Shown one piece after another: positions 19,157-28,713 of a DNA stretch of 32,000 nt. The notes below the pieces were generated by a model. The model was not told where the DNA came from. It did not search any database and saw nothing but the letters and a program-made list of their open reading frames with translations. The DNA lies in assembly GCF_000186885.1 (NCBI RefSeq), contig NC_014972.1:240001-272000 (forward strand). Direction: 5' to 3'. Within the stretch, counting starts at the first letter, position 1; each line of letters opens with the position of its first letter. Position numbers and translations under genes: made by a program. This stretch comes from Desulfobulbus propionicus DSM 2032 (GTDB lineage: Bacteria; Desulfobacterota; Desulfobulbia; Desulfobulbales; Desulfobulbaceae).

Positions 19157-19543
19157 CTACCCGTCTTGCTCCTCTGCGCCGCCCTGCTTTCCCTGCTGTT
19201 CATCAGCAGCCTCACCAAGGATCGTCCACACCTGCCTTTCGCAAACCCCGGTAAGTGATGACAGCTCATGAGCGGTAATATTGCCCTGATCGTAAATCGA
19301 ACGCATGATGACGTTGCGCCACAACCTGATGAACTTATCCGGCTTGCGAAGGTATAGATGCTGGCCAGGGAACACTTGAGCCAGCAGCAAGGTCAGCCGC
19401 ACGCCATCGCCTGGCATGTGCTCATCAATGGCGGTTGCAACGGTTTTCAGCTCACCGGGAAGGTCGCTGATCTTCGGGAGGAAGTCCTTTGGCAGATGTA
19501 CCACCGGCGGCCGCAGGCAGCGCAACACATCGCGATTATCCAT
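19157..19543 (-). CDS. Mor-family (Mu middle operon regulator-like) transcriptional activator, paralog 1
   Basis: ELKTVATAIDEHMPGDGVRLTLLLAQVFPGQHLYLRKPDKFIRLWRNVIMRSIYDQGNITAHELSSLTGVCERQVWTIL fits the Mor layout, with a C-terminal HTH. The preferred start is the ATG at 19543 (MDNRD...), which overlaps the upstream gene's stop (ATGGATAA). Confidence 0.7.
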   Translation of the reverse strand: MDNRDVLRCLRPPVVHLPKDFLPKISDLPGELKTVATAIDEHMPGDGVRLTLLLAQVFPGQHLYLRKPDKFIRLWRNVIMRSIYDQGNITAHELSSLTGVCERQVWTILGEAADEQQGKQGGAEEQDG

Positions 19544-20009
19544 TGTCCTGCTCCTCTGCGCCGCCCTTCTTGCGCTCGACAATCTTTCCCAGGGCATAGT
19601 ATGCCTTTTGCGCCTGCTTGCGGTCCATGGTGCGAAAATCCTCCACCTTGATCCATTTCTCGAGCCAACCCTTGATTTCTTCTTTGCTCCATCCCAGGTC
19701 CCTGAACATCAAACGGATATCCATGACATGGTAGTGGCTCGGCAGCGTCTCTCCGCCTTCAACCTCGTTTTCTCGTGGTGGCGGAAGCGGTCCGGTCCGG
19801 ACCGTCTGCCCGGTCATCTTGCCAATCATGAAGAGCTCTTCCTGCTTTGACAATGCCGTCAAGCTCGGTATCCCCGTCAAGTCTGCCGCCAATCGGTACA
19901 CCTCGTCTTGCGAAAATCCGTGCTTTCTCCCCTGGAAATGAAGGGATTTGATCAGCTGCTTCGGGATGGGCTCAAACACCTTGATAGGCCGTTTCATCGT
20001 CAATTCCAT
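19536..20009 (-). CDS. GemA/gp16-like (DUF1018-type) regulatory protein
   Basis: IKSLHFQGRKHGFSQDEVYRLAADLTGIPSLTALSKQEELFMIGKM and HVMDIRLMFRDLGWSKEEIKGWLEKWIKVEDFRTMDRKQAQKAYYALGKI match the two-block pattern I recall for Mu GemA-family proteins. The start is uncertain (ATG 20009 or ATG 19997). Confidence 0.6.
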   Translation of the reverse strand: MELTMKRPIKVFEPIPKQLIKSLHFQGRKHGFSQDEVYRLAADLTGIPSLTALSKQEELFMIGKMTGQTVRTGPLPPPRENEVEGGETLPSHYHVMDIRLMFRDLGWSKEEIKGWLEKWIKVEDFRTMDRKQAQKAYYALGKIVERKKGGAEEQDNG

Positions 20010-20032
20010 GTGGGGGGTGTTTTTTCAAAAAC

Positions 20033-20300
20033 CTGCACCATCTACACCATTTCATCGTAAAATACTGTTTTTCCGTTTAATTTCGTGGTGTAGATCATAT
20101 TGACGATCTACACCACGGTTGAGAATTTACATTTTTATTCAGGCGGTTAGATAGGCATCGTGGATCCACACCACCTGAAGAGGATCTACACCACGTGGTG
20201 TAGGTCAAAAGGGGATGTACACCACGCCTACACCAGGGATATACACCAAACAAATATAATAAAATTATATATTTATAAAGAAATGGTGTAAAGGTGTAGG
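20033..20300. repeat. Iteron-like array: at least 11 copies of (GAT)CTACACCAC in both orientations plus an AT-rich tract; candidate origin or regulatory hub
   Basis: Direct copies at 20042, 20107, 20165 (variant), 20185, 20216 (variant), 20227 and 20240 (variant). Inverted copies at 20085, 20195, 20284 (variant) and 20292 (variant). An 18-bp perfect palindrome CTACACCACGTGGTGTAG lies at 20186-20203. The AT-rich block is 20250-20283. Confidence 0.75.
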
Positions 20301-20376
20301 CATTTTCACATATACGCCCTGTTTTTTTTAGCCACCAACGAAAAAAATAGGTTTGCGGGCAGTTTGGGAATTATTA

Positions 20377-20589
20377 TCACAGTGTCCTTTTTTGCACCCC
20401 CCCCTTTTTACCCATGACCCTCCCCTGATTTTTCGACCAAAAACTGGCACCCCTTACCACTCCCTTTTCCAGGGCAGGCTGTTTCAACTTGCCGAGATGG
20501 AGTAAAGTCCCAGGGAAACTGATTCCTTTTTCGGTCATCTTTATCCTTGCCTTGACCGTTTTGCCTTTCCGCTTCTGTATCAATTTCAC
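20377..20589 (-). CDS. Possible small basic protein (70 aa), uncertain
   Basis: GTG start preceded by GGAGAGG and overlapping the Mor2 stop (GTGA). The product is very K/R-rich. No motif is recognised, and it could be spurious. Confidence 0.3.
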   Translation of the reverse strand: MKLIQKRKGKTVKARIKMTEKGISFPGTLLHLGKLKQPALEKGVVRGASFWSKNQGRVMGKKGGVQKRTL

Positions 20590-20945
20590 TGTCGCCTCTC
20601 CAGTTGTTCACTTGTTCCCGTTTTCATGTTTTTGGTAGCTGGGCTCGCCAGTATTTTTTCGACAGTGCGCATGCTGAGGCGGAATTTGGTGGCCAAAACT
20701 TTTGCAGTACATCCTCCTTGGTCATATTCGGCGCGGATACAATCATGCTGCCATGCGGTGATGAATCGCTTAACACTGCGGAAATAGACGGGCTGCCCGT
20801 GGAAAATCTGTGCGAGCAGCAAGGTAAGACGTACCCCGCTGCCTGGAAGATGCTCCTCGATAGCATCCGCCACCCGCCGCAAATCACCGGGCATGTCCTC
20901 AATTGGCGGATAGTACTGTTCAGGCAAATGTACAATTTCAAGCAT
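20586..20945 (-). CDS. Mor-family transcriptional activator, paralog 2
   Basis: DLRRVADAIEEHLPGSGVRLTLLLAQIFHGQPVYFRSVKRFITAWQHDCIRAEYDQGGCTAKVLATKFRLSMRTVEKIL aligns by eye with paralog 1. The preferred start is the ATG at 20945. The track begins at a TTG at 20960. Confidence 0.7.
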   Translation of the reverse strand: MLEIVHLPEQYYPPIEDMPGDLRRVADAIEEHLPGSGVRLTLLLAQIFHGQPVYFRSVKRFITAWQHDCIRAEYDQGGCTAKVLATKFRLSMRTVEKILASPATKNMKTGTSEQLERRQ

Positions 20946-21032
20946 GATAGATTTTTCCAATTTTCTCTCAATTTATGCAAGTTCAGGCATTGCTTTTGAA
21001 TACATCGAGGCCGCCAGTCACATCGTTTTCAT

Positions 21033-22052
21033 TTACAGAAAAGAAGGTTTCCCTTCTTGAATATTGATCCCAAGGCCCATAAGCCGTCCAATTTCTGCAT
21101 CAATTTTTTCCTGAATATCGCTTCCATTAAACTTGAAGAGCATGCCGGGCATATCTGTGATATCGTGCGCCATGCAGGTATCCAACCGGAACGATGGAAT
21201 GCTGAAACTGCGGGTGTATGGCCCGAATACCTCTTTTCGCGCTCCGCACCTCTCGATAACAGAGGATAGCGCAATCACCTTGGAGTATGCCGCCGCAAGG
21301 TTGCCGGCCTGCTTCACATACTCTCCACCGGCCTTTTCCAGCTCCTGTTCAAGAAATATCGCCAGGCCGTCAAAAAGGTTCCGTTCGGCAATGGCAACTT
21401 CATTTTTTGCTTGCACAAGCTTCCGTTTGAGACCCGGTATTTTCTCGGAAGCTGCGGCAATCTCTTTGTCCAGCCTGCAACGTAGACCTTTCTCTTTTGA
21501 TATTTCGAGGGTGAGCGAATCGAGGTGTTCTTGGTTTATTGATTCCCCGCAAGCGATATCGGCAATCAGGTCCTCTCTTTCCCTGATCATCTTGGCCAGT
21601 GTGTCGTTGTTCCCTTGTTTGGCAACAGCTAGACGTTCTTCTTCCTCAGCAATCAGGTCCTCAATTTTTTGAATCTTCTGAGCTCCATCGTTGACCGCTT
21701 CTTGCATGGGCAAGAGGTCTTCGACGGTTATCTTCTGCTCAAGGGCGTCAAGCTGCTCCTGAAGGTCGTTCAGCCGTGCGTCAATCTGCGCTTTCTTATC
21801 TTTGCAGGCCTGCATCTTTGAATCAGCACTGTCTACCGTCTCCTTGAAGTTGCGATAATCGGCCTTAACATGCCCGGGCCACATGCTCTCATCGGTTCCA
21901 TACCTTGACTTCATGGACTCAATGCGCGTCTGTGCATCCCCTCGCTCCCGATACATCACGTCGAGAGATGGGAGCTTATCAAGACCTCTCCGGGTCCGTT
22001 TGATTTCTTCCAACAATGCGCGTTTCTTCTCAATGACTTGTGCAAAACTCAT
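21033..22052 (-). CDS. Hypothetical coiled-coil protein (339 aa)
   Basis: ATG at 22052 preceded by GAGGGG, 21 nt after the primase-helicase stop. It has long heptad-like, E/K/Q-rich stretches. No catalytic motif is recognised. Confidence 0.7.
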   Translation of the reverse strand: MSFAQVIEKKRALLEEIKRTRRGLDKLPSLDVMYRERGDAQTRIESMKSRYGTDESMWPGHVKADYRNFKETVDSADSKMQACKDKKAQIDARLNDLQEQLDALEQKITVEDLLPMQEAVNDGAQKIQKIEDLIAEEEERLAVAKQGNNDTLAKMIREREDLIADIACGESINQEHLDSLTLEISKEKGLRCRLDKEIAAASEKIPGLKRKLVQAKNEVAIAERNLFDGLAIFLEQELEKAGGEYVKQAGNLAAAYSKVIALSSVIERCGARKEVFGPYTRSFSIPSFRLDTCMAHDITDMPGMLFKFNGSDIQEKIDAEIGRLMGLGINIQEGKPSFL

Positions 22053-22075: not shown

Positions 22076-24873
22076 TCAGCGATTTGATTTTTCCCGCCTG
22101 AACACCCTGCTCAGGCGATGCCGTCGTTCCCCGTTGTATTTCGTTGCTTCGCGCTCAAATATCCATCCCGCTTTCCGCAACACCTCTATGGAGTCGGTTA
22201 TTCTGGCCCCAAGCTGTGATGGTGATTTAAACGGGTTGGCAATGCCCCGATCCTTGGCCAGCCAGTCAAAGGCCCTGAAAATGGTGCCTGTCGAAGCTGT
22301 AAAGACGACCTTCTTCAGCTCGTTGCCGTCCCGATCCGCATTTACCTTGATACCGTATTCTTGCTCGAATCGATCCGGCCTGATTTCGTATTCTTTGAGC
22401 AAGGACTCAATGCCGTAGAGTATCCGGTTGGTCTCTGCCTCGGTGGCAAAGGCCCGCTGGTTCTGGTTGCGAATCCATTCGTCCAGTATCCACCGCGCTT
22501 CGGTGTTGCCGGTCTGGTCTTTTACCTGCGAGATGTACTTGACCACCTCTTGCAAGATGATGAAGAGCATGGCATACAGCTCGTTGAGGCGTTTTTTCGA
22601 GTGCGCCGGATAATCGGTGCGGAGGACCTTCAGGGCGTCGGATTTCTTCTCATCGATCCCGGGCAGGATGTCGTTGGCGATGATTTTGAAGATCGTGCTC
22701 CAAATCAGGTCCCTGGACTCGCGAAGGTCGGACTCGACCGCGATTGATTCCCGGAAATTCGGGTTGTGGAACTTCTTGTCGAAGAGGATCTCGTTGGTTC
22801 GTTCGATCAACTCCGGCTCGGAAAACGGCTCAATGGATGTCACCAGCAGTTGGGTGCAAGAGCGCTCGTATACGTTGTCAGAATCGCTTCCAGCCTTCCG
22901 CTTCTGCCGGGTGATACCCGTGGCCGCAGTCAACAAGAAATCGCGTTTGCCGCCCTTCACCGCGTCCGACTCGAGGTTGTCCGAAATGGTCAGCGGAGAG
23001 ATGGCCGCCTCGGAAAAATCAGAGGCGGCCGAACCAGTGGTAACGCAGTCCTCACCGTAGATGAGCGTGGAGAGCATCGACGCCGCCGATGTCTTGCCGC
23101 ACCCCTTGGTGCCTGAAAACTTGGTGATACCCCTGGCCTTGACGTATTGCAGCAGCACAACGTTGAAGATCAGGCACACCACGAAGTATTTGTCCGCCAG
23201 GTCGCACGCCAGGTTGTCGAAGATGTGGGCCTTGATGCTGGCCATACCCTTCTTCACGTCGGCGTCATGGAGATAGCGCAGGGGGTGCATTTTTGGTGAA
23301 TTGCGGAGCAGCACCCGCTCGGAGTTGGTGCCATTGGGGACCACCTCTATCTTTCTAGGGCCGATTTTGAGCAGGGTGGTGTTCTCCCCGCACAGGTTGA
23401 AATAGACGGTGTTTTCCTTGAAGTTGGTGAAGATCCAACCCGGTACCGAAGTGTGATCCCCCCTCAGGTAGGCCTGGCTTTCGATGTTCTGAACGACCAT
23501 CCTGGCGCCGATGTTGGCCGCATTAATACCGGCCTCACTGTAGAGCAGGGCCTTGAACGGTGTGTTGGCGCCGATTTTGTAAATTCGGTTGTTGAAGTAG
23601 AGGTGGCAGTCTTCGCCGTCGATGAAGAACTTGCCCTTGGCCTGGAACCACTCGAAGCAGATCTTGCCGAAGGTGTCATAGTCGAACTTCCCCTCTTGCT
23701 GGTTGACGTGCTGCGAGTACCAGGACTTCAGCTCAGTCAACGGCGGATAGTAGCGCTCCGCCCCTTTCATCAGCGATTCGAGCACGTCCGCCGGCTTGTC
23801 CTGGCCGCGCAGGTGCTCATCAATGTCTTTCACCTCACGGTCAAAGCGCACCAGGCGAACTTCGGCCGCCTCTGTTTGCATGAGCCTGGCCAGCGTCGGC
23901 GGCAGGCAGTGTTCCCGCAGCGCCTGGCACACGCTGTCGGTGTATTTCTGCCCGGCTGTGTCGTTGTCGAAGCAGAGGTATAGCTTCCGCCCCGGCGCCC
24001 ATGATTTCAGGTAGTCGAGCTGGGCCTTTGATATCTGGCCGTTGATGGCCGCCACGTTGGCCAGGCCGCCCCGTCCATGCACCGTGAGCAGGTCATTCTC
24101 GCCCTCTACAAGGAAAACTTCCTTCCCGGCGAAGCCGACATGTTGAAGAACAGAGTGCCCCCCTCAAGCCAATATTCGGCCGGCAAGCGGTACTTGTACT
24201 TCTTGCGCTGATCCTTGATGGTGAACCCGGCCACCTGGTTGTGCCGGTCCCGGTGCGGATAGATGAACAGGTCACGGCAGAAGAAATCCTGCATCCGGCC
24301 ATCGTTGGGTTTCCCCAGGCCGGATGCAACGATGGCCTCATCGGTGAAACCTTCGGCCTTGAGGTGATCACAGAGCCGGCCGTCGGTGTAGCCCACCATG
24401 AAGGCCACCAGCGTCTTGTCAGCATGGCACCGCTTGCCGTGCTGATAGCCCAAGGCCCGGTGATCCTTCATCAGGGTTTCGTGGTAGTAGAGGGCGGCCT
24501 TGGTGAAGATGCGGCGGCGGCCGTCGCGCTGCTGCTCTTCCTCAGGGCTCAGCTTTGGTTGATCCTTGGCCCCGGTCAACTCGTGGCCGTGGTACTCGGC
24601 CAGAGTCTTGAGCGCCTGGTGCTTATCGCACTGGTTAAGGCGTTGGATGAAATCGTAGATGTCGCCGTCATTATCGCCAGGGGCACACAGTTGGAAGCAG
24701 TGCCACCGCTGCTTTGATGGCGTGATGCGGAAGCAGTCGTGCCCCCCGCAGAAGGGGCACGATGCAAGGTTGATGGTATCGGCGCCGGCATTGGTGGTCG
24801 CCATGCCGGTAACCTGGCGGATGTACTCCGCCAGGTCGGTGCGGTCTTTGAGAAGGGCGAAGTCGTCTGTCAT
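22076..24873 (-). pseudogene. Bifunctional primase-helicase (zf-CHC2, TOPRIM, P-loop NTPase), split by a frameshift
   Basis: The upstream ORF (24106-24873) carries the CHC2 zinc finger (CPFCGGHDCFRI...WHCF). The TOPRIM acidic motif VFLVEGENDLLTV is encoded in the downstream ORF's frame but upstream of its first start codon. The DxD part (LCFDNDTAGQ) and Walker A (GTKGCGKTS) are in ORF 22076-24082. The frame change must occur within 24109-24163, and a C6 run (G6 on the coding strand) lies at 24158-24163. Confidence 0.8.
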
Positions 24874-25430
24874 GCCGCCACCCCCTGGCCTTGCTGGTCC
24901 GGCGGTGCGGTTGGTTGTTTCTTGCCGCCGTTGGCGGGTTGCTTTTCCTTCAGTAGCGCCTTGATGCGGCCTTCAAGCTCCATGGCATGGCTGGAAAGCA
25001 TATCGCCGCGCTGCGCAACAATCGCTGTGCAGGCCAGGGCCCTGGTCAGTTCCATCTTGACTTGATCATTTCCATACCAGCCGGTCTTGATCTGCTCCAG
25101 GGTGGCGGTCACCTTTCGAAGCAAATGTTCGTCGCTGTCCTGGTAGCGGTCCACATAGCCGGCAACGATGCGGGCCTGCTCATCGATGCAAAGATCGATG
25201 AGCTTTGACAGCCCCCATTGCAGGTCTTGGGCGATGTGATCAGCAAGGGAACCATCTCTGCATTCGCCCGGGTCGAAGTAGGAAAGCCGCGCTGTTTTGA
25301 TCAGCGCGCTCAGGGCGCGGGGGGCGTGGCATGCCTCATCAAATGCGTCTTGCAGATCAAGAGGGGTGCGGATGGTGGGGATTGAGGAAGAGGTGGTGCT
25401 GGCGGAAACTTCTTGCGAACGGTCAAACAT
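24870..25430 (-). CDS. Hypothetical protein (186 aa), first gene of the replication operon
   Basis: ATG at 25430 (MFDRSQE...) with GGAG 9 nt upstream. The stop overlaps the primase start (ATGA at 24870-24873). Confidence 0.6.
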   Translation of the reverse strand: MFDRSQEVSASTTSSSIPTIRTPLDLQDAFDEACHAPRALSALIKTARLSYFDPGECRDGSLADHIAQDLQWGLSKLIDLCIDEQARIVAGYVDRYQDSDEHLLRKVTATLEQIKTGWYGNDQVKMELTRALACTAIVAQRGDMLSSHAMELEGRIKALLKEKQPANGGKKQPTAPPDQQGQGVAA

Positions 25431-25444
25431 GGCTATTACTCCGG

Positions 25445-25517
25445 AAAATAAAAATGCCCAGAGTGGTACCACGCCTAGAAGGGCGTCGGGGTCCTCGCGG
25501 ATACCCCCCACTCTGAG
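25445..25517 (-). terminator. Leader hairpin 1: long stem-loop followed by TTTTTATTTT, immediately upstream of the orf186 RBS
   Basis: On the minus strand the outer stem is CUCAGAGUGG/CCACUCUGGG (10 bp, one G-U), with an inner stem ACGCC/GGCGU. It contains the shared 16-nt block at 25490-25505. Confidence 0.55.
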
Positions 25518-25644
25518 CAAATTCAAATTCTGGATGTGCGCTTATCTCCAGCCGTGCCTGAGCACCTTGGGCGGTGTCGGCAACTGGCTGGGCGCAAATA
25601 AAAAATTCCCGGTTTAAGGTGTGCGGGAGCCACCCTTCTAGTTT

Positions 25645-25660
25645 GGTATCCGCAAGATAC
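25645..25660 (-). ncRNA. Leader element B (minus-strand RNA GUAUCUUGCGGAUACC), partly complementary to the 16-nt block in hairpins 1 and 2
   Basis: It contains GCGGAUACC, the exact complement of GGUAUCCGC. The extended duplex with GGUAUCCGCGAGG has 11 Watson-Crick and 2 G-U pairs. The element itself forms a 5-bp hairpin (GUAUC/GAUAC). Confidence 0.35.
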
Positions 25661-25685
25661 GGAAAAGCCGCTATGTTCGCAAGGT

Positions 25686-25765
25686 AAAAATGCCCAGACT
25701 GCCAGGAGGATTGACCCTGACAGTCAACGCCTTGCGGTCCTCGCGGATACCGCACAGTCTGGGCA
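25686..25765 (-). terminator. Leader hairpin 2: long stem-loop followed by TTTTT, downstream of alpA
   Basis: Perfect 11-bp outer stem TGCCCAGACTG/CAGTCTGGGCA, with internal stems GAGGA/UCCUC and UUGAC/GUCAA. It contains the shared 16-nt block at 25736-25751. Confidence 0.55.
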
Positions 25766-25809
25766 AAAATCATTGGTATGGCCACGCCGGAAGGTCCCGT
25801 CACTTGATA

Positions 25810-26025
25810 TTATGCGACGTTACCGCTTCGGGCTTGCTGGATGCGGCCTGATATCCAGTTGTCGATCTCATCGGAAATCCAGGCCACGGCCCGGCCGGCC
25901 AGAGGTACGGCTTGCGGGAACTCCCCTTGCTTCATCAGGGCGTAGATGTGGGCGCGTTTCAGGCCGGTGCGCTTCTCAACATCCGGCCTTCTGAGTAGGG
26001 TTTTCGGCGGTGCTTGGCTTGACAT
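25810..26025 (-). CDS. alpA: AlpA-family DNA-binding protein (prophage regulatory/excisionase-like)
   Basis: 71 aa. LLRRPDVEKRTGLKRAHIYALMKQGEFPQAVPLAGRAVAWISDEIDNWI is the classic AlpA pattern. AAGGAG lies 8 nt upstream of the ATG. Confidence 0.85.
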   Translation of the reverse strand: MSSQAPPKTLLRRPDVEKRTGLKRAHIYALMKQGEFPQAVPLAGRAVAWISDEIDNWISGRIQQARSGNVA

Positions 26026-27230: not shown

Positions 27231-28460
27231 CTATCCGGCCGCTGCAAAAATGGGGATGATGTCCGCCCCCTTCTCCAAGGCATCAAGATAATCAGCCCAG
27301 GCCTGCATCATCTTGCGCCGTTCCGGTATGTGCTGGGCGTAGTTGTAGGCGGCCTTGACGCTGTTTCGCTCCTTGTGGGCCAGCTGCCGTTCGATCACGT
27401 CCGACGGCCAACCCTGTTCATGCAGCAGGGTTGAGGCCATGGCCCGGAAGCCGTGCCCGGTCATTTCATCCTTGGCATACCCCATGCGGCGCAGGGCGGC
27501 ATTGACGGTGTTTTCACTCATGGGGCGTTCGCCCGTTCGCAACGAGGGGAACACATAGCGGCCTTCGCCGGTCAACGGCTGTAACTCCCTGAGCACGGCC
27601 AGGGCCTGCCTGGACAGCGGCACAAAATGGAAGTTTTGCGGTATCGCCTTCAGCGCCTTTTTCAGCTTCCGCTTTTCCGGCGGTATCTTCCACTCGGCGC
27701 GGTCAAGGTCTATATCGGCCCATTCCGCATGCCTCAGCTCCCCAGGACGAACAAAGGTAAGCGGGGCCAGGCGCAGGGCGCACCGGGTGATGATTTCGCC
27801 CTTATAGCCCCTGATGGCCCGCAGCAGGGCGGAAACCCCTTTGGGGTCGGTGATGGTGGCCATGGATTTTGACGGTGGCGGCGGCAGGGCGCCGCGCAGA
27901 TCCGCGCTTGGGTCACGCTCGGCGCGGCCGGTGGCCACGGCATAGCGGAACACCTGCCCGCACATCTGCTTGATGCGGTGGGCCGTCTCTATGGCGCCAC
28001 GATCCTCTATCCGGCGGAGCACGGCCAGCAACATGGGCGCGGTCACATCGGCAATGGGCGTCCGGCCAAGCCACGGAAAGACGTTGGCCTCAAGGCGGGT
28101 GATAATGTCCCTGGCGTGATTGTCCGTCCAGGTGTGCTTGTTCTTGAGGAACCACTCACGGGCCACCGCTTCAACGCTGTTGAGGTTGGTGGCGGCTTCC
28201 TTGTCCATCTTCCTCTGTTCGCCGGGGTCGATGCCGTCGGCAATCAGCTTGCGGGCCTCGGCCAACCGCTCACGGGCGCCGGCCAGGGACACATCAGGGT
28301 ACACCCCCAGGGCCAGGGTTTTCTGCTTGTCCTGGAAACGATAATTGAAGCGAAAATATTTGCCGGTGGACTTCACCAAAAGGTAGAGCCCTTTTCCGTC
28401 GGTCAGCTTATAGGGCTGTTCCTTTGGCTTGGCGTTTTTGATGGCGGTATCAACGAGCAT
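27231..28460 (-). CDS. int: P4-type tyrosine integrase (int2), apparently intact
   Basis: N-terminal DUF4102-like arm-binding domain (KLTDGKGLYLLVKSTGKYFRFNYRF..KTLALGVYPDVSLAGARE). The catalytic residues are R (RPGELRHAEW), HGFRAMAS and LAHKERNSVKAAYNY. It lies 164 nt downstream of the tRNA-Ser 3' end, in the same orientation. Confidence 0.92.
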   Translation of the reverse strand: MLVDTAIKNAKPKEQPYKLTDGKGLYLLVKSTGKYFRFNYRFQDKQKTLALGVYPDVSLAGARERLAEARKLIADGIDPGEQRKMDKEAATNLNSVEAVAREWFLKNKHTWTDNHARDIITRLEANVFPWLGRTPIADVTAPMLLAVLRRIEDRGAIETAHRIKQMCGQVFRYAVATGRAERDPSADLRGALPPPPSKSMATITDPKGVSALLRAIRGYKGEIITRCALRLAPLTFVRPGELRHAEWADIDLDRAEWKIPPEKRKLKKALKAIPQNFHFVPLSRQALAVLRELQPLTGEGRYVFPSLRTGERPMSENTVNAALRRMGYAKDEMTGHGFRAMASTLLHEQGWPSDVIERQLAHKERNSVKAAYNYAQHIPERRKMMQAWADYLDALEKGADIIPIFAAAG

Positions 28461-28510: not shown

Positions 28511-28554
28511 GCCAAGGACCGGCTGTCAATGAACTCTGTGGAACTCAGCGGAAA

Positions 28555-28588
28555 ATAAAAAAAGCCAAATGCTTGGTAGCAAATGGCT
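28555..28588 (-). terminator. Terminator downstream of tRNA-Ser (minus strand)
   Basis: Stem AGCCA..TGC/GCA..TGGCT with a symmetric A-A internal loop, followed on the minus strand by a T run (the plus-strand A run at 28555-28563). Confidence 0.55.
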
Positions 28589-28623
28589 TTTGTGACCTCT
28601 ATGGAACTTTGTGGAACGATTTT

Positions 28624-28713
28624 TGGCGGAGAAGCAGGGATTCGAACCCTGGGTGGAGTTACCCCCACAACGGTTTTCGAGACCGTCCCGTTCAACCACT
28701 CCGGCACTTCTCC
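28624..28713 (-). tRNA. tRNA-Ser (anticodon CGA), 90 nt with encoded CCA
   Basis: Folded by hand. Acceptor stem GGAGAAG/CUUCUCC; anticodon stem ACGGU/ACCGU with loop CUCGAAA. It has a long variable arm (GUGGGG..CUCCAC), a T arm CAGGG-UUCGAAU-CCCUG, discriminator G and CCA. Confidence 0.9.

Follow-up and report, generated by a model that had tools for sequence, protein, structure and literature searches.

The window analysed here, a stretch of 32,000 nucleotides from Desulfobulbus propionicus DSM 2032 (contig NC_014972.1, positions 240,001 to 272,000), holds a structured leader between an alpA gene and a set of replication genes. Read on the minus strand, the order is alpA, a predicted promoter, a target site, a putative weak terminator, a spacer, a c4-type RNA and then the replication genes; promoter, target, terminator and RNA keep this order in the related loci. 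The alpA gene (25810-26025) lies upstream on the same strand and encodes a protein of 71 amino acids that belongs to the Phage_AlpA family (Pfam PF05930, E = 3e-20) and is the counterpart of P4 vis/ORF88. On the other side of the leader, orf186 (Despr_0271, 24870-25442, minus strand) is the first gene of the operon proposed to be regulated; its product has no known domain, and a Shine-Dalgarno sequence (GGAG, 25442-25439, minus strand) lies 5' of it. A DnaG-type primase gene follows downstream of orf186. This position of a leader between an AlpA gene and a primase gene was found for the Desulfobulbus island family and for P4.

The host element is a tRNA-Ser island of a sulfate-reducing Desulfobulbus. 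The same island carries the int-alpA RNA motif (RF02996) 1.5 kb upstream of the c4-type RNA, a motif reportedly described in the same 2017 paper by Weinberg et al. as the c4-2 RNA discussed below. No att direct repeat marking the far end of the island was found within the window. Compared with related loci, the leader is conserved as well as or better than its flanking genes: it is 89% identical to that of relative L015, where alpA is 73% and orf186 64% identical, and 97% identical to that of L010, where orf186 is 70.5% identical. The spacer holds a hairpin of its own (25537-25596, minus strand; fold z = -3.7) whose pairs are almost all invariant. This hairpin is kept in close relatives, partly deleted in L006 and missing from L205.

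The last structure before orf186, hairpin 1 (25445-25521, minus strand), is a member of the Rfam c4-2 family (RF02944). Its segment 25452-25520 matches the family model over its full length (model positions 1-79) with 45.6 bits, the curated gathering score being 41 bits. Rfam places c4-2 in clan CL00128 together with C4 (RF01695), the family of P1 c4 and P4 CI RNA, which does not bear out the view of the sequence-only reading that the sequences here are unrelated to P4. For the window, c4-2 alone was reported and C4 was not, overlapping Rfam matches within one clan being reduced to the best. Relatives L015 and L205 also pass the c4-2 gathering score, and the distant groups L174, L189, L197, L211 and L212 miss it; with a local covariance model, hairpin 1 scores 91.8 bits. 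The main text of the paper on c4-2 (Weinberg et al. 2017, PMC5737381) considers the motif a likely distant homologue of a known RNA.

Hairpin 1 is unusually stable (-38.9 kcal/mol, z = -5.8, with none of 200 shuffles as stable). Its outer stem, which contains four covarying pairs among close relatives and seven across 12 loci, encloses two inner hairpins and is followed by a U-tract. The first inner hairpin ends in a GCGA tetraloop and carries an invariant 16-mer (25505-25490); we propose that this hairpin with its GNRA tetraloop is a structural module. The second presents the loop CCCUUCUAG (25483-25475) and is followed by a 3' junction, UGGUA (25471-25467). A scan of genome contigs with the bare 16-mer returned at least 120 loci, and those listed were chance matches apart from two Streptomyces hairpins, which are not c4-2-like. 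The same scan of viral contigs found one true relative, L174; at the protein level, neither orf186 nor the primase N-terminus had a match among viral contigs.

The second loop and the junction have a partner at the 5' end of the leader. This target (25631-25648, minus strand), the counterpart of seqA and of a1b1, consists of UACCA (25648-25644), AA and CUAGAAGGG(UG) (25641-25631). The CUAGAAGGG block (25641-25633) begins 3 nt 3' of element B (GUAUCUUGCGGAUACC, 25645-25660, minus strand), the segment that the sequence-only reading took as effector, and was missed there. The target matches the second inner loop of hairpin 1 exactly in reverse complement, and the full pairing joins the CCCUUCUAG loop and UGGUA to CUAGAAGGG and UACCA. 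In an alignment of nine leaders, 96.8% of cells (one sequence at one pair) are paired, and two-sided changes occur at five pairs, in 18 cells. The covariation score of this pairing is 0.429, against 0.119 +/- 0.03 for shuffles, none of 500 of which reached 0.429; sliding the partner columns gives no more than 0.097. In a set of 12 loci from at least five sequence groups, the duplex between RNA and leader has a mean energy of -26.0 kcal/mol within a locus and -18.2 +/- 3.2 kcal/mol between loci, and the partner from the same locus ranks first in 10 rows and 11 columns of the 12 by 12 comparison. The loop-target pair is the partnership best supported by evolution, ahead of that between the 16-mer and element B. 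We propose that this variable pair sets the immunity specificity. The covariation fits pairing in trans and in cis alike.

An exact-run search within 3 kb on either side found no conserved loop-complementary site of at least 7 nt besides the upstream one, leaving no candidate for a second target like seqC or a2b2; duplex-energy scans for downstream targets are noisy in this GC-rich island. The c4-a1b1 (RF03163) and isrK (RF01394) models gave no match at E <= 10 in 25350-25900.

A sigma-70-type promoter is predicted just upstream of the target (25654-25682, minus strand), with TTGCGA (25682-25677), a 17-nt spacer and TATCTT (25659-25654), placing the predicted transcription start near A25647. 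The match in the window is weak, agreeing at 8 of 12 positions, which about 8% of shuffles equal or better. In each of the 12 loci, a -35/-10 pair nevertheless precedes the target by 12-20 nt, and four sequence groups among them, with unrelated leaders, have a near-consensus TTGACA. Downstream of the target lies T1 (25600-25628, minus strand), which the sequence-only reading had described as a small stem and which is the putative counterpart of P4 t1: UCCCG (25628-25624) pairs with CGGGA (25611-25607) and AUUUUUU follows. With five base pairs and a 12-nt loop, T1 is weak as an intrinsic terminator, and element B and T1 taken as a whole fold with ordinary stability (z = -0.4). T1 is invariant in nine relatives, and a comparable hairpin with a U-tract occupies its position in the distant groups, the position being kept in 12 of 12 loci. 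The T1 sequence had no matches in viral contigs.

A second helix, S1 (25616-25636, minus strand), is the predicted anti-terminator. It pairs AGGGUG (25636-25631) with CACCUU (25621-25616), and its 5' arm lies within the target while its loop contains the 5' arm of T1. S1 belongs to the minimum-free-energy structure of the leader, and covariation is seen at two of its six pairs (G-C to U-A and U-A to C-G). With the target blocked, the predicted probability of T1 goes from 0.15 to 0.97 for the window leader, and 7 of 12 leaders move from at most 0.2 to at least 0.69. Since constraint folding of this kind can only increase the T1 probability, the sign of the change does not count as independent evidence. 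For the leaders of L015, L017, L174 and L197, terminator formation is already predicted with the target free, at 0.62-0.83. S1 and T1 could also coexist as an H-type pseudoknot instead of excluding each other.

These features recall the immunity region of P4. In P4 the same gene order is seen: the AlpA-family gene vis/ORF88, the promoter PLE, seqA, t1 (where the window has the putative terminator T1), a spacer of about 100 nt, CI RNA and the replication genes, there epsilon and alpha (primase). P4 ORF88 matches the Phage_AlpA family (PF05930) and lies upstream, with the primase downstream, and P4 CI RNA matches the C4 family with 74.9 bits, 110 nt downstream of isrK and c4-a1b1 matches that hold seqA and the terminator. 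P4 also shares the pairing in two blocks, GUGAGAA...UUCACAGG with the CI loop and 3' junction; in both elements the 5' leader block meets the junction 3' of the second hairpin and the 3' block meets the loop. The t1 terminator of P4 is said, on the authority of Briani et al. in 2000, to require both CI RNA and seqA and to serve CI autoregulation. In P4, CI RNA pairs with seqA and seqC and causes premature termination (PMC4825925). The sequence-only reading had drawn the analogy to P4 CI, and it was right in kind, both in the c4/CI class of RNA and in the order alpA, leader, primase, but it gave the parts the wrong roles.

There are also clear differences from P4. P4 has seqC downstream of CI, whereas the window has no such second target within the 3 kb searched on either side. 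The P4 RNA belongs to C4 and the window RNA to c4-2, two families of one clan, and the P4 target region matches the c4-a1b1 and isrK models, while that of the window matches neither. Unlike in P4, the c4-2 RNA immediately precedes the first gene, and its terminator-like end lies 15 nt ahead of the start codon. The P4 primase is of the alpha/D5 type and that of the window of the DnaG type, and P4 resides in enterobacteria rather than in Desulfobulbus. The c4 RNA of P1 and P7 (immI) likewise has an outer stem with two inner hairpins whose loops set specificity, and targets that lie upstream on the same transcription unit (PMC5320573). The functional P1 target, a2/b2, lies downstream, in contrast to the window, where only the upstream target was found within the 3 kb searched on either side, and a2/b2 covers the icd ribosome-binding site, so the output in P1 is translational repression. 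The first hairpin, which determines specificity in P1/P7, is invariant here. For P1 c4 and P4 CI, release by RNase P processing and trans-acting repression or immunity are known (PMC5499578, PMC5320573).

Taken together, we consider it highly probable (roughly 85%) that the structured leader 5' of the replication genes holds an antisense phage immunity RNA of the c4/CI class with its own upstream target; a putative terminator accompanies the two. That the whole chain works as a P4-type module of RNA immunity and autoregulation built around the c4-2 RNA is somewhat probable, and for termination at T1 as its output we see about even odds. In this model, a constitutive promoter overlapping element B would start transcription near 25647, and the first 17 or so nucleotides of the transcript (ACCAAACUAGAAGGGUG) would carry the target. 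Without c4-2 RNA, the target would fold into S1 and sequester the 5' arm of the weak terminator T1; with that arm sequestered, RNA polymerase would read through T1 into the spacer and hairpin 1. Hairpin 1 would then yield the c4-2 RNA, with its own terminator-like outer stem, and a fraction of transcripts would continue into orf186 and the primase gene. As c4-2 RNA accumulates, its second loop and 3' junction would bind the target on nascent leaders. This duplex would break S1 and allow T1 to form, stopping transcription early. The outcome would be repression of c4-2 and of the replication genes, both in the resident island and in an incoming copy of the same specificity. The transcription start, the action in trans and termination at T1 are what we infer from this arrangement; the start site, like processing of the RNA and termination, is a prediction of the model.

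An alternative is that the second loop of c4-2 and the 5' end of the leader meet only in cis, within one precursor, where their pairing would guide processing or stability or mask the RNA without any immunity in trans. Some 160 nt separate the two partners on a single predicted transcript, and the covariation would fit this arrangement equally well. In P1, a1 and b1 lie upstream of c4 on the same precursor. Rfam (RF03163) describes a1 and b1 as C4 antisense RNA targets. However, with T1 between the partners, transcription would often stop short of c4-2. The RNA also has a terminator-like end of its own, which is typical of a free small RNA, and action in trans is known for its characterised relatives, P1 c4 and P4 CI (PMC5320573, PMC4825925). 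We regard pairing in cis alone as unlikely.

The P4-type module could also have an output other than termination. A target RNA of about 48 nt ending at T1 might, like IsrK, titrate c4-2 or activate the long transcript, or the duplex might trigger RNase III cleavage or alter the stability of the 5' end. The region of P4 equivalent to the target matches the isrK family, and IsrK is both a small RNA and a messenger RNA that activates downstream translation (PMC4825925). IsrK of Salmonella Gifsy-1 (RF01394) resembles the window in having a short terminated and a long read-through isoform from one promoter on a mobile element; it differs in that it activates translation, while the element in the window is proposed to repress, and the window has no isrK match. 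T1 is weak, and in four leaders it is predicted whether or not the target is blocked. Against this, S1 overlaps both the target and the terminator arm and covaries, which fits a terminator switch, and the orf186 ribosome-binding site is not close to the target but 190 nt away, beyond c4-2. An output of this kind seems quite unlikely.

The window leader differs from its relatives in a second structure of the c4-2 type. Hairpin 2 (25681-25767, minus strand) is a diverged copy, inserted as a stretch of about 90 nt behind the alpA stop codon and ahead of the leader promoter, and it folds stably (-41.1 kcal/mol, z = -5.0, with none of 200 shuffles as stable). In minimum-free-energy folds, hairpins 1 and 2 have the same three-way architecture: an outer stem around two hairpins, a UA bulge and a GNRA loop in the first of these, and a 3' U-tract. 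They share the outer stem/terminator and the first inner hairpin, and the two exact blocks TAAAAATGCCCAGA and GGTCCTCGCGGATACC, recovered here as direct repeats D1 and D2, had already been pointed out in the sequence-only reading, as had the compensatory difference in the outer stem and the unrelated inner stem-loops. The second inner hairpin of hairpin 2 differs from that of hairpin 1; it is longer and has the loop UGUCAGG. Hairpin 2 scores 50 bits (E = 5e-13) against a local covariance model of 12 relatives from which it was left out, and gave no match to Rfam c4-2 even at E <= 10 in a 551-nt search, making it a paralogue outside the curated threshold.

None of the related loci sampled has hairpin 2 in its leader; each carries a single c4-2-type copy. 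The outer stem of hairpin 2 is of the L006 type, and hairpin 2 replaced an A-rich tract upstream of the -35 box. We propose that it is an extra c4-2-type RNA gene of different specificity, inserted upstream of the promoter and probably sitting in the alpA 3' UTR. Its loop has no target site within the window; among viral contigs the loop sequence matched five times by chance, never together with a c4-2 RNA. The predicted target would be a leader with CCUGACAG(UCAAC) adjoining a T1-like terminator. Whether hairpin 2 was captured from a sibling island and, expressed from the alpA 3' UTR, works as a hetero-specific immunity RNA that silences the replication operon of a rival element, island or phage, whose immunity type differs is doubtful. 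If true, hairpin 2 would represent RNA-based exclusion between mobile elements.

Conversely, hairpin 2 might be debris of illegitimate recombination in a locus that regulates nothing in DSM 2032. The lack of a target in the window and the replaced A-rich tract would fit such decay. So would the primase reading frame, which is broken between 24118 and 24187 and is intact, at about 931 amino acids, in relatives; with the primase frameshifted, the module may no longer control anything in this strain. However, the leader 3' of hairpin 2, at 97% identity to L010, has all its elements intact, and hairpin 2 keeps a perfect fold and terminator. We find decay decidedly improbable, and it would concern the present activity of the element rather than its identity.

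The sequence-only reading had assigned the parts differently: element B would be the seqB-like effector, binding the 16-mer of hairpins 1 and 2 as seqA and seqC targets and causing termination. All four elements on which it was built (hairpin 2, element B, the small stem and hairpin 1) are present on the minus strand where it had placed them. The 13-bp run between element B and the 16-mer, with 11 Watson-Crick and two G-U pairs, was confirmed by hand; positions 25645-25656 are 92% complementary over 12 nt to both 16-mers. Chance rarely produces a run of this length (2 of 5000 dinucleotide shuffles of the leader between the hairpins), and element B is conserved in 8 of 9 close leaders. The c4-2 model leaves this pairing unexplained. 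Element B may also be a palindromic operator, a reading that gained no support: covariation is absent from its arms, and L205 lacks the right one.

Such an arrangement is nevertheless highly improbable, as hairpin 1 is itself a c4/CI-class RNA, the hairpins being effector-class RNAs and not targets that flank an effector, and as hairpin 2 is missing from all relatives sampled, so that a three-part scheme cannot be the conserved mechanism. The covariation sought in homologues was found for the loop and its target; for element B and the 16-mer no compensation is seen, with an invariant 16-mer and 10 of 117 cells unpaired. Changes of element B in L004, L008 and L006 break pairs uncompensated, 7 of 13 pairs are lost in L205, and the distant groups have no B-like site, yet L205 and these groups retain the 16-mer hairpin. 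The 16-mer is locked in a 7-bp stem and 4-nt GNRA loop and is poorly accessible. Element B overlaps the predicted -10 box and start, which would leave most of it 5' of the transcription start and only its last three or four nucleotides (ACC or UACC), which begin the UACCA block, in the leader RNA.

To our knowledge, enterobacterial elements are the only ones in which RNA immunity like that of P1 c4 and P4 CI has been worked out. Our analysis suggests that a Desulfobulbus island and related metagenomic elements follow the same logic, with the c4-2 family and a target module whose sequence is unrelated. Through the covarying loop-target pair, a bioinformatic motif gains a concrete target, with attenuation at an upstream terminator as the likely output, and the nucleotides that would set specificity are identified. 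The practical use lies in the annotation of satellite-like islands, and the surprise to specialists will be small. If the target and terminator module has not already been described, the orphan c4-2 family gains a testable mechanism.

The minus-strand array in this region of Desulfobulbus propionicus DSM 2032 is that of a P4-style integrative island. It begins with a tRNA-Ser(cga) gene (28624-28713) and continues through a tyrosine integrase (27231-28460), the int-alpA RNA motif RF02996 (27019-27086, 52 bits), orf268, alpA (25810-26025), a 379-nt leader, orf186 (Despr_0271, 24870-25430) and, 3' of orf186, a DnaG-type primase gene (22076-24873). The leader element is a c4-2 RNA in a P4-like layout. 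Hairpin 1 (25445-25521, minus strand) contains a full-length match to Rfam c4-2 (RF02944) at 25452-25520, scoring 45.6 bits where the gathering score is 41. Rfam places c4-2 with C4 and c4-a1b1 in clan CL00128, and Weinberg et al. 2017 (PMC5737381) describe c4-2 as a likely distant homologue of an already described RNA.

The sequence-only reading had likened this leader to the P4 CI RNA system, with element B (25645-25660, minus strand) effector-like and hairpins 1 and 2 target-like. As a comparison of kind this was correct; it gave the parts the wrong roles and took the wrong pairing as decisive. When P4 itself is run against Rfam, its CI RNA matches C4 at 74.9 bits; the isrK and c4-a1b1 matches, which include a terminator hairpin, lie about 110 nt upstream of CI RNA. 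Rfam describes c4-a1b1 as 'a1, b1 targets of C4 antisense RNA'. Together with the c4-2 match, these results make hairpin 1 an effector-class RNA and not a target.

The probable target lies elsewhere in the leader. CCCUUCUAG (25483-25475), which forms the loop of the second inner hairpin of hairpin 1, is perfectly complementary to CUAGAAGGG (25641-25633), a site located 3 nt 3' of element B. UACCA (25648-25644) makes up a second block and pairs with UGGUA (25471-25467), just 3' of that inner hairpin. Among related loci (L-numbers), leader site and loop vary jointly: CAAGUAGGG with CCCUACUUG in L001, CGACAAGGG with CCCUUGUCG in L004, UAUCAGGGCG with CGCCCUGAUA in L006, CUAUCAC with GUGAUAG in L015 and L197, CUGACAC with GUGUUAG in L017, CUAACACG with CGUGUUAG in L205, ACACAAC with GUUGUGU in L174, and AUAACAC with GUGUUAU in L189. 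L205 also carries a compensated change within the UACCA/UGGUA block. Across nine leaders the loop-target duplex is 96.8% paired, with both sides changed in 5 pairs (18 cells, a cell being one sequence at one pair). Its covariation score of 0.429 compares with 0.119 +/- 0.03 after shuffling (reached in 0 of 500), and sliding the partner columns gave at most 0.097. When duplex energies for 12 loci were compared all against all (12 x 12), own-locus duplexes averaged -26.0 kcal/mol versus -18.2 +/- 3.2 for foreign ones, and the own partner ranked first in 10 of 12 rows and 11 of 12 columns.

These relatives came from two sources. Loci L001-L017 were reached through nine homologues of orf186 (44-89% identity), and all show the order int, orfX, alpA, a leader of about 300 nt, orf186 and a primase of about 931 aa; their leaders hold one c4-2 hairpin, element B, the small stem and a spacer, and lack hairpin 2. 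Scanning metagenomes for the 20-nt core sequence of the first inner hairpin added L205, a more distant island with unchanged gene order, and four further sequence groups (L174/L189, L197, L211 and L212) on phage-like contigs near integrases. Judged by sequence identity, the non-coding leader (25431-25682) is at least as conserved as its flanking genes: it is 89% identical to L015 (alpA 73%, orf186 64%) and 97% identical to L010 (orf186 70.5%). Two further metagenomic loci have c4-2-like hairpins that contain this family's 16-mer and score lower on a local covariance model: L207 (472-550, 31 bits), where the hairpin starts about 10 nt 3' of a tRNA gene (376-462), and L202 (575-658, 33 bits).

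Downstream of the target lies T1 (25600-25628, minus strand), the small stem UCCCG/CGGGA with AUUUUUU after it. The nine leaders show no variation in T1, and an analogous hairpin with a U-tract replaces it in the distant groups. The minimum-free-energy fold of the leader contains not T1 but S1 (AGGGUG/CACCUU, 25616-25636, minus strand), a predicted anti-terminator helix with two covarying pairs, whose 5' arm lies inside the target and whose loop contains the 5' arm of T1. Blocking the target, a constraint that can only raise the value, took the predicted T1 probability in the window from 0.15 to 0.97. In 7 of 12 leaders this probability started at 0.2 or less and reached 0.69 or more. The two folds, the S1 covariation and the blocking result suggest that pairing of c4-2 with the target would disrupt S1 and promote termination at T1, which would fall upstream of c4-2 as well as of the replication genes. 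Between T1 and c4-2, a stable spacer hairpin (25537-25596, minus strand; -31 kcal/mol, z = -3.7) has no Rfam match; it occurs in close relatives, is partly deleted in L006 and is absent from L205, and its near invariance neither supports nor refutes the structure.

What the sequence-only reading observed is confirmed. All four of its leader elements lie where it placed them, a repeat finder returned both blocks common to hairpins 1 and 2 and showed element B to be complementary to each 16-mer, and the two hairpins share the same three-way fold (z = -5.8 and -5.0). The 13-bp run between element B and the 16-mer was equalled in only 2 of 5000 dinucleotide shuffles. As the key pairing this run is not supported: the 16-mer is invariant across all relatives from the protein search, changes in B (U to G in L004 and L008, two in L006, most of B in L205) are uncompensated, with 10 of 117 cells unpaired and none changed on both sides, and the distant groups keep the 16-mer hairpin with nothing B-like. 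The 16-mer folds into a 7-bp stem that carries a UA bulge and is capped by a GCGA tetraloop, and its equivalent in the Rfam c4-2 consensus is GGuAgCgGAAAcGcCC, so it looks like a structural module. Element B coincides with a promoter-like TTGCGA-17-TATCTT, a weak match on its own; a -35/-10 pair stands 12-20 nt upstream of the target in 12 of 12 loci, with consensus TTGACA in groups whose leaders are of unrelated sequence. If transcription from this predicted promoter began near 25647, the RNA would contain no more of B than its last 3 or 4 nt. The rare B:16-mer run could matter on read-through transcripts from alpA.

The 16-mer hairpin GGUAUCC-GC-GAGGACC also recurs in contexts that are not c4-2-like, including a Streptomyces intergenic hairpin (L094 6668-6694, L145 740-766) and a highly conserved, probably coding stretch in many metagenome contigs from skin and other sources (L186-L219). 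It may be that this GNRA hairpin is favoured in general.

Other features of the island deserve mention. Besides c4-2, these islands conserve the int-alpA RNA motif, which lies between int and orf268, as a second RNA element; it is also present in L006, L015, L205 and even the distant L194, and the intergenic stretch that holds it matches L001 at 100% identity across 88 nt. The primase gene is in two frames (L010 primase residues 1-251 align to 24873-24118, and 229-931 to 24187-22079 in the other frame), and in relatives one ORF of 925-935 aa encodes the enzyme. The split reflects either a frameshift (pseudogene) or a sequencing error; given the frameshifted primase, the island may be decaying. 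Between tRNA-Ser and int, a terminator-like hairpin (AAAAGCCAUUUGCU...AGCAUUUGGCUUUUUUUAUUUU, 28552-28591, minus strand) is a weak partial match to the local covariance model (10.8 bits). On the minus strand 3' of the primase (19536-22052) lie the coiled-coil-like orf339 and weak matches to the Mor (20586-20960) and GemA (19536-20009) families, which suggest that the island has Mu-like late-gene regulators. No att repeat marking the far boundary was found within the window.

Hairpin 2 (25681-25767, minus strand) is not reported by Rfam even at E <= 10; a local covariance model trained on 12 sequences of c4-2 type, with hairpin 2 left out, scores it at 50 bits (E = 5e-13). It shares the outer stem/terminator and first inner hairpin with hairpin 1 and differs in its second inner hairpin, which is longer and has an unrelated sequence. 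The window carries an insert of about 90 nt in place of GACAAAAACTC, directly upstream of TTGCGAAC, and the outer stem of hairpin 2, CCCAGACUG/CAGUCUGGG, is of the type seen in L006 and L007. By the local model, every other locus has a single copy. The predicted duplex of its loop with the island's own leader (-20.4 kcal/mol) is at the level of foreign pairings, so by modelled energy the loop is mismatched to that leader. We found no target site for the loop in the window and no source element among viral contigs. One possibility is that hairpin 2 serves as a hetero-specific immunity RNA made from the alpA 3' UTR; another is that it is recombination debris.

P4 t1, between PLE and cI, is reported by Briani et al. 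2000 to need CI and seqA and to serve autoregulation. As read from its sequence, P4 has the same two-block topology as the loop-target pairing here, the leader GUGAGAA...UUCACAGG facing CI CCUGUGAA...UUCUCAC. In P4, CI RNA pairs with seqA and seqC and causes premature termination (PMC4825925); no second, downstream target of c4-2 was found here within +/- 3 kb. The covariation-supported target and terminator for c4-2 are a modest addition, as is the strain-specific second copy of different specificity.
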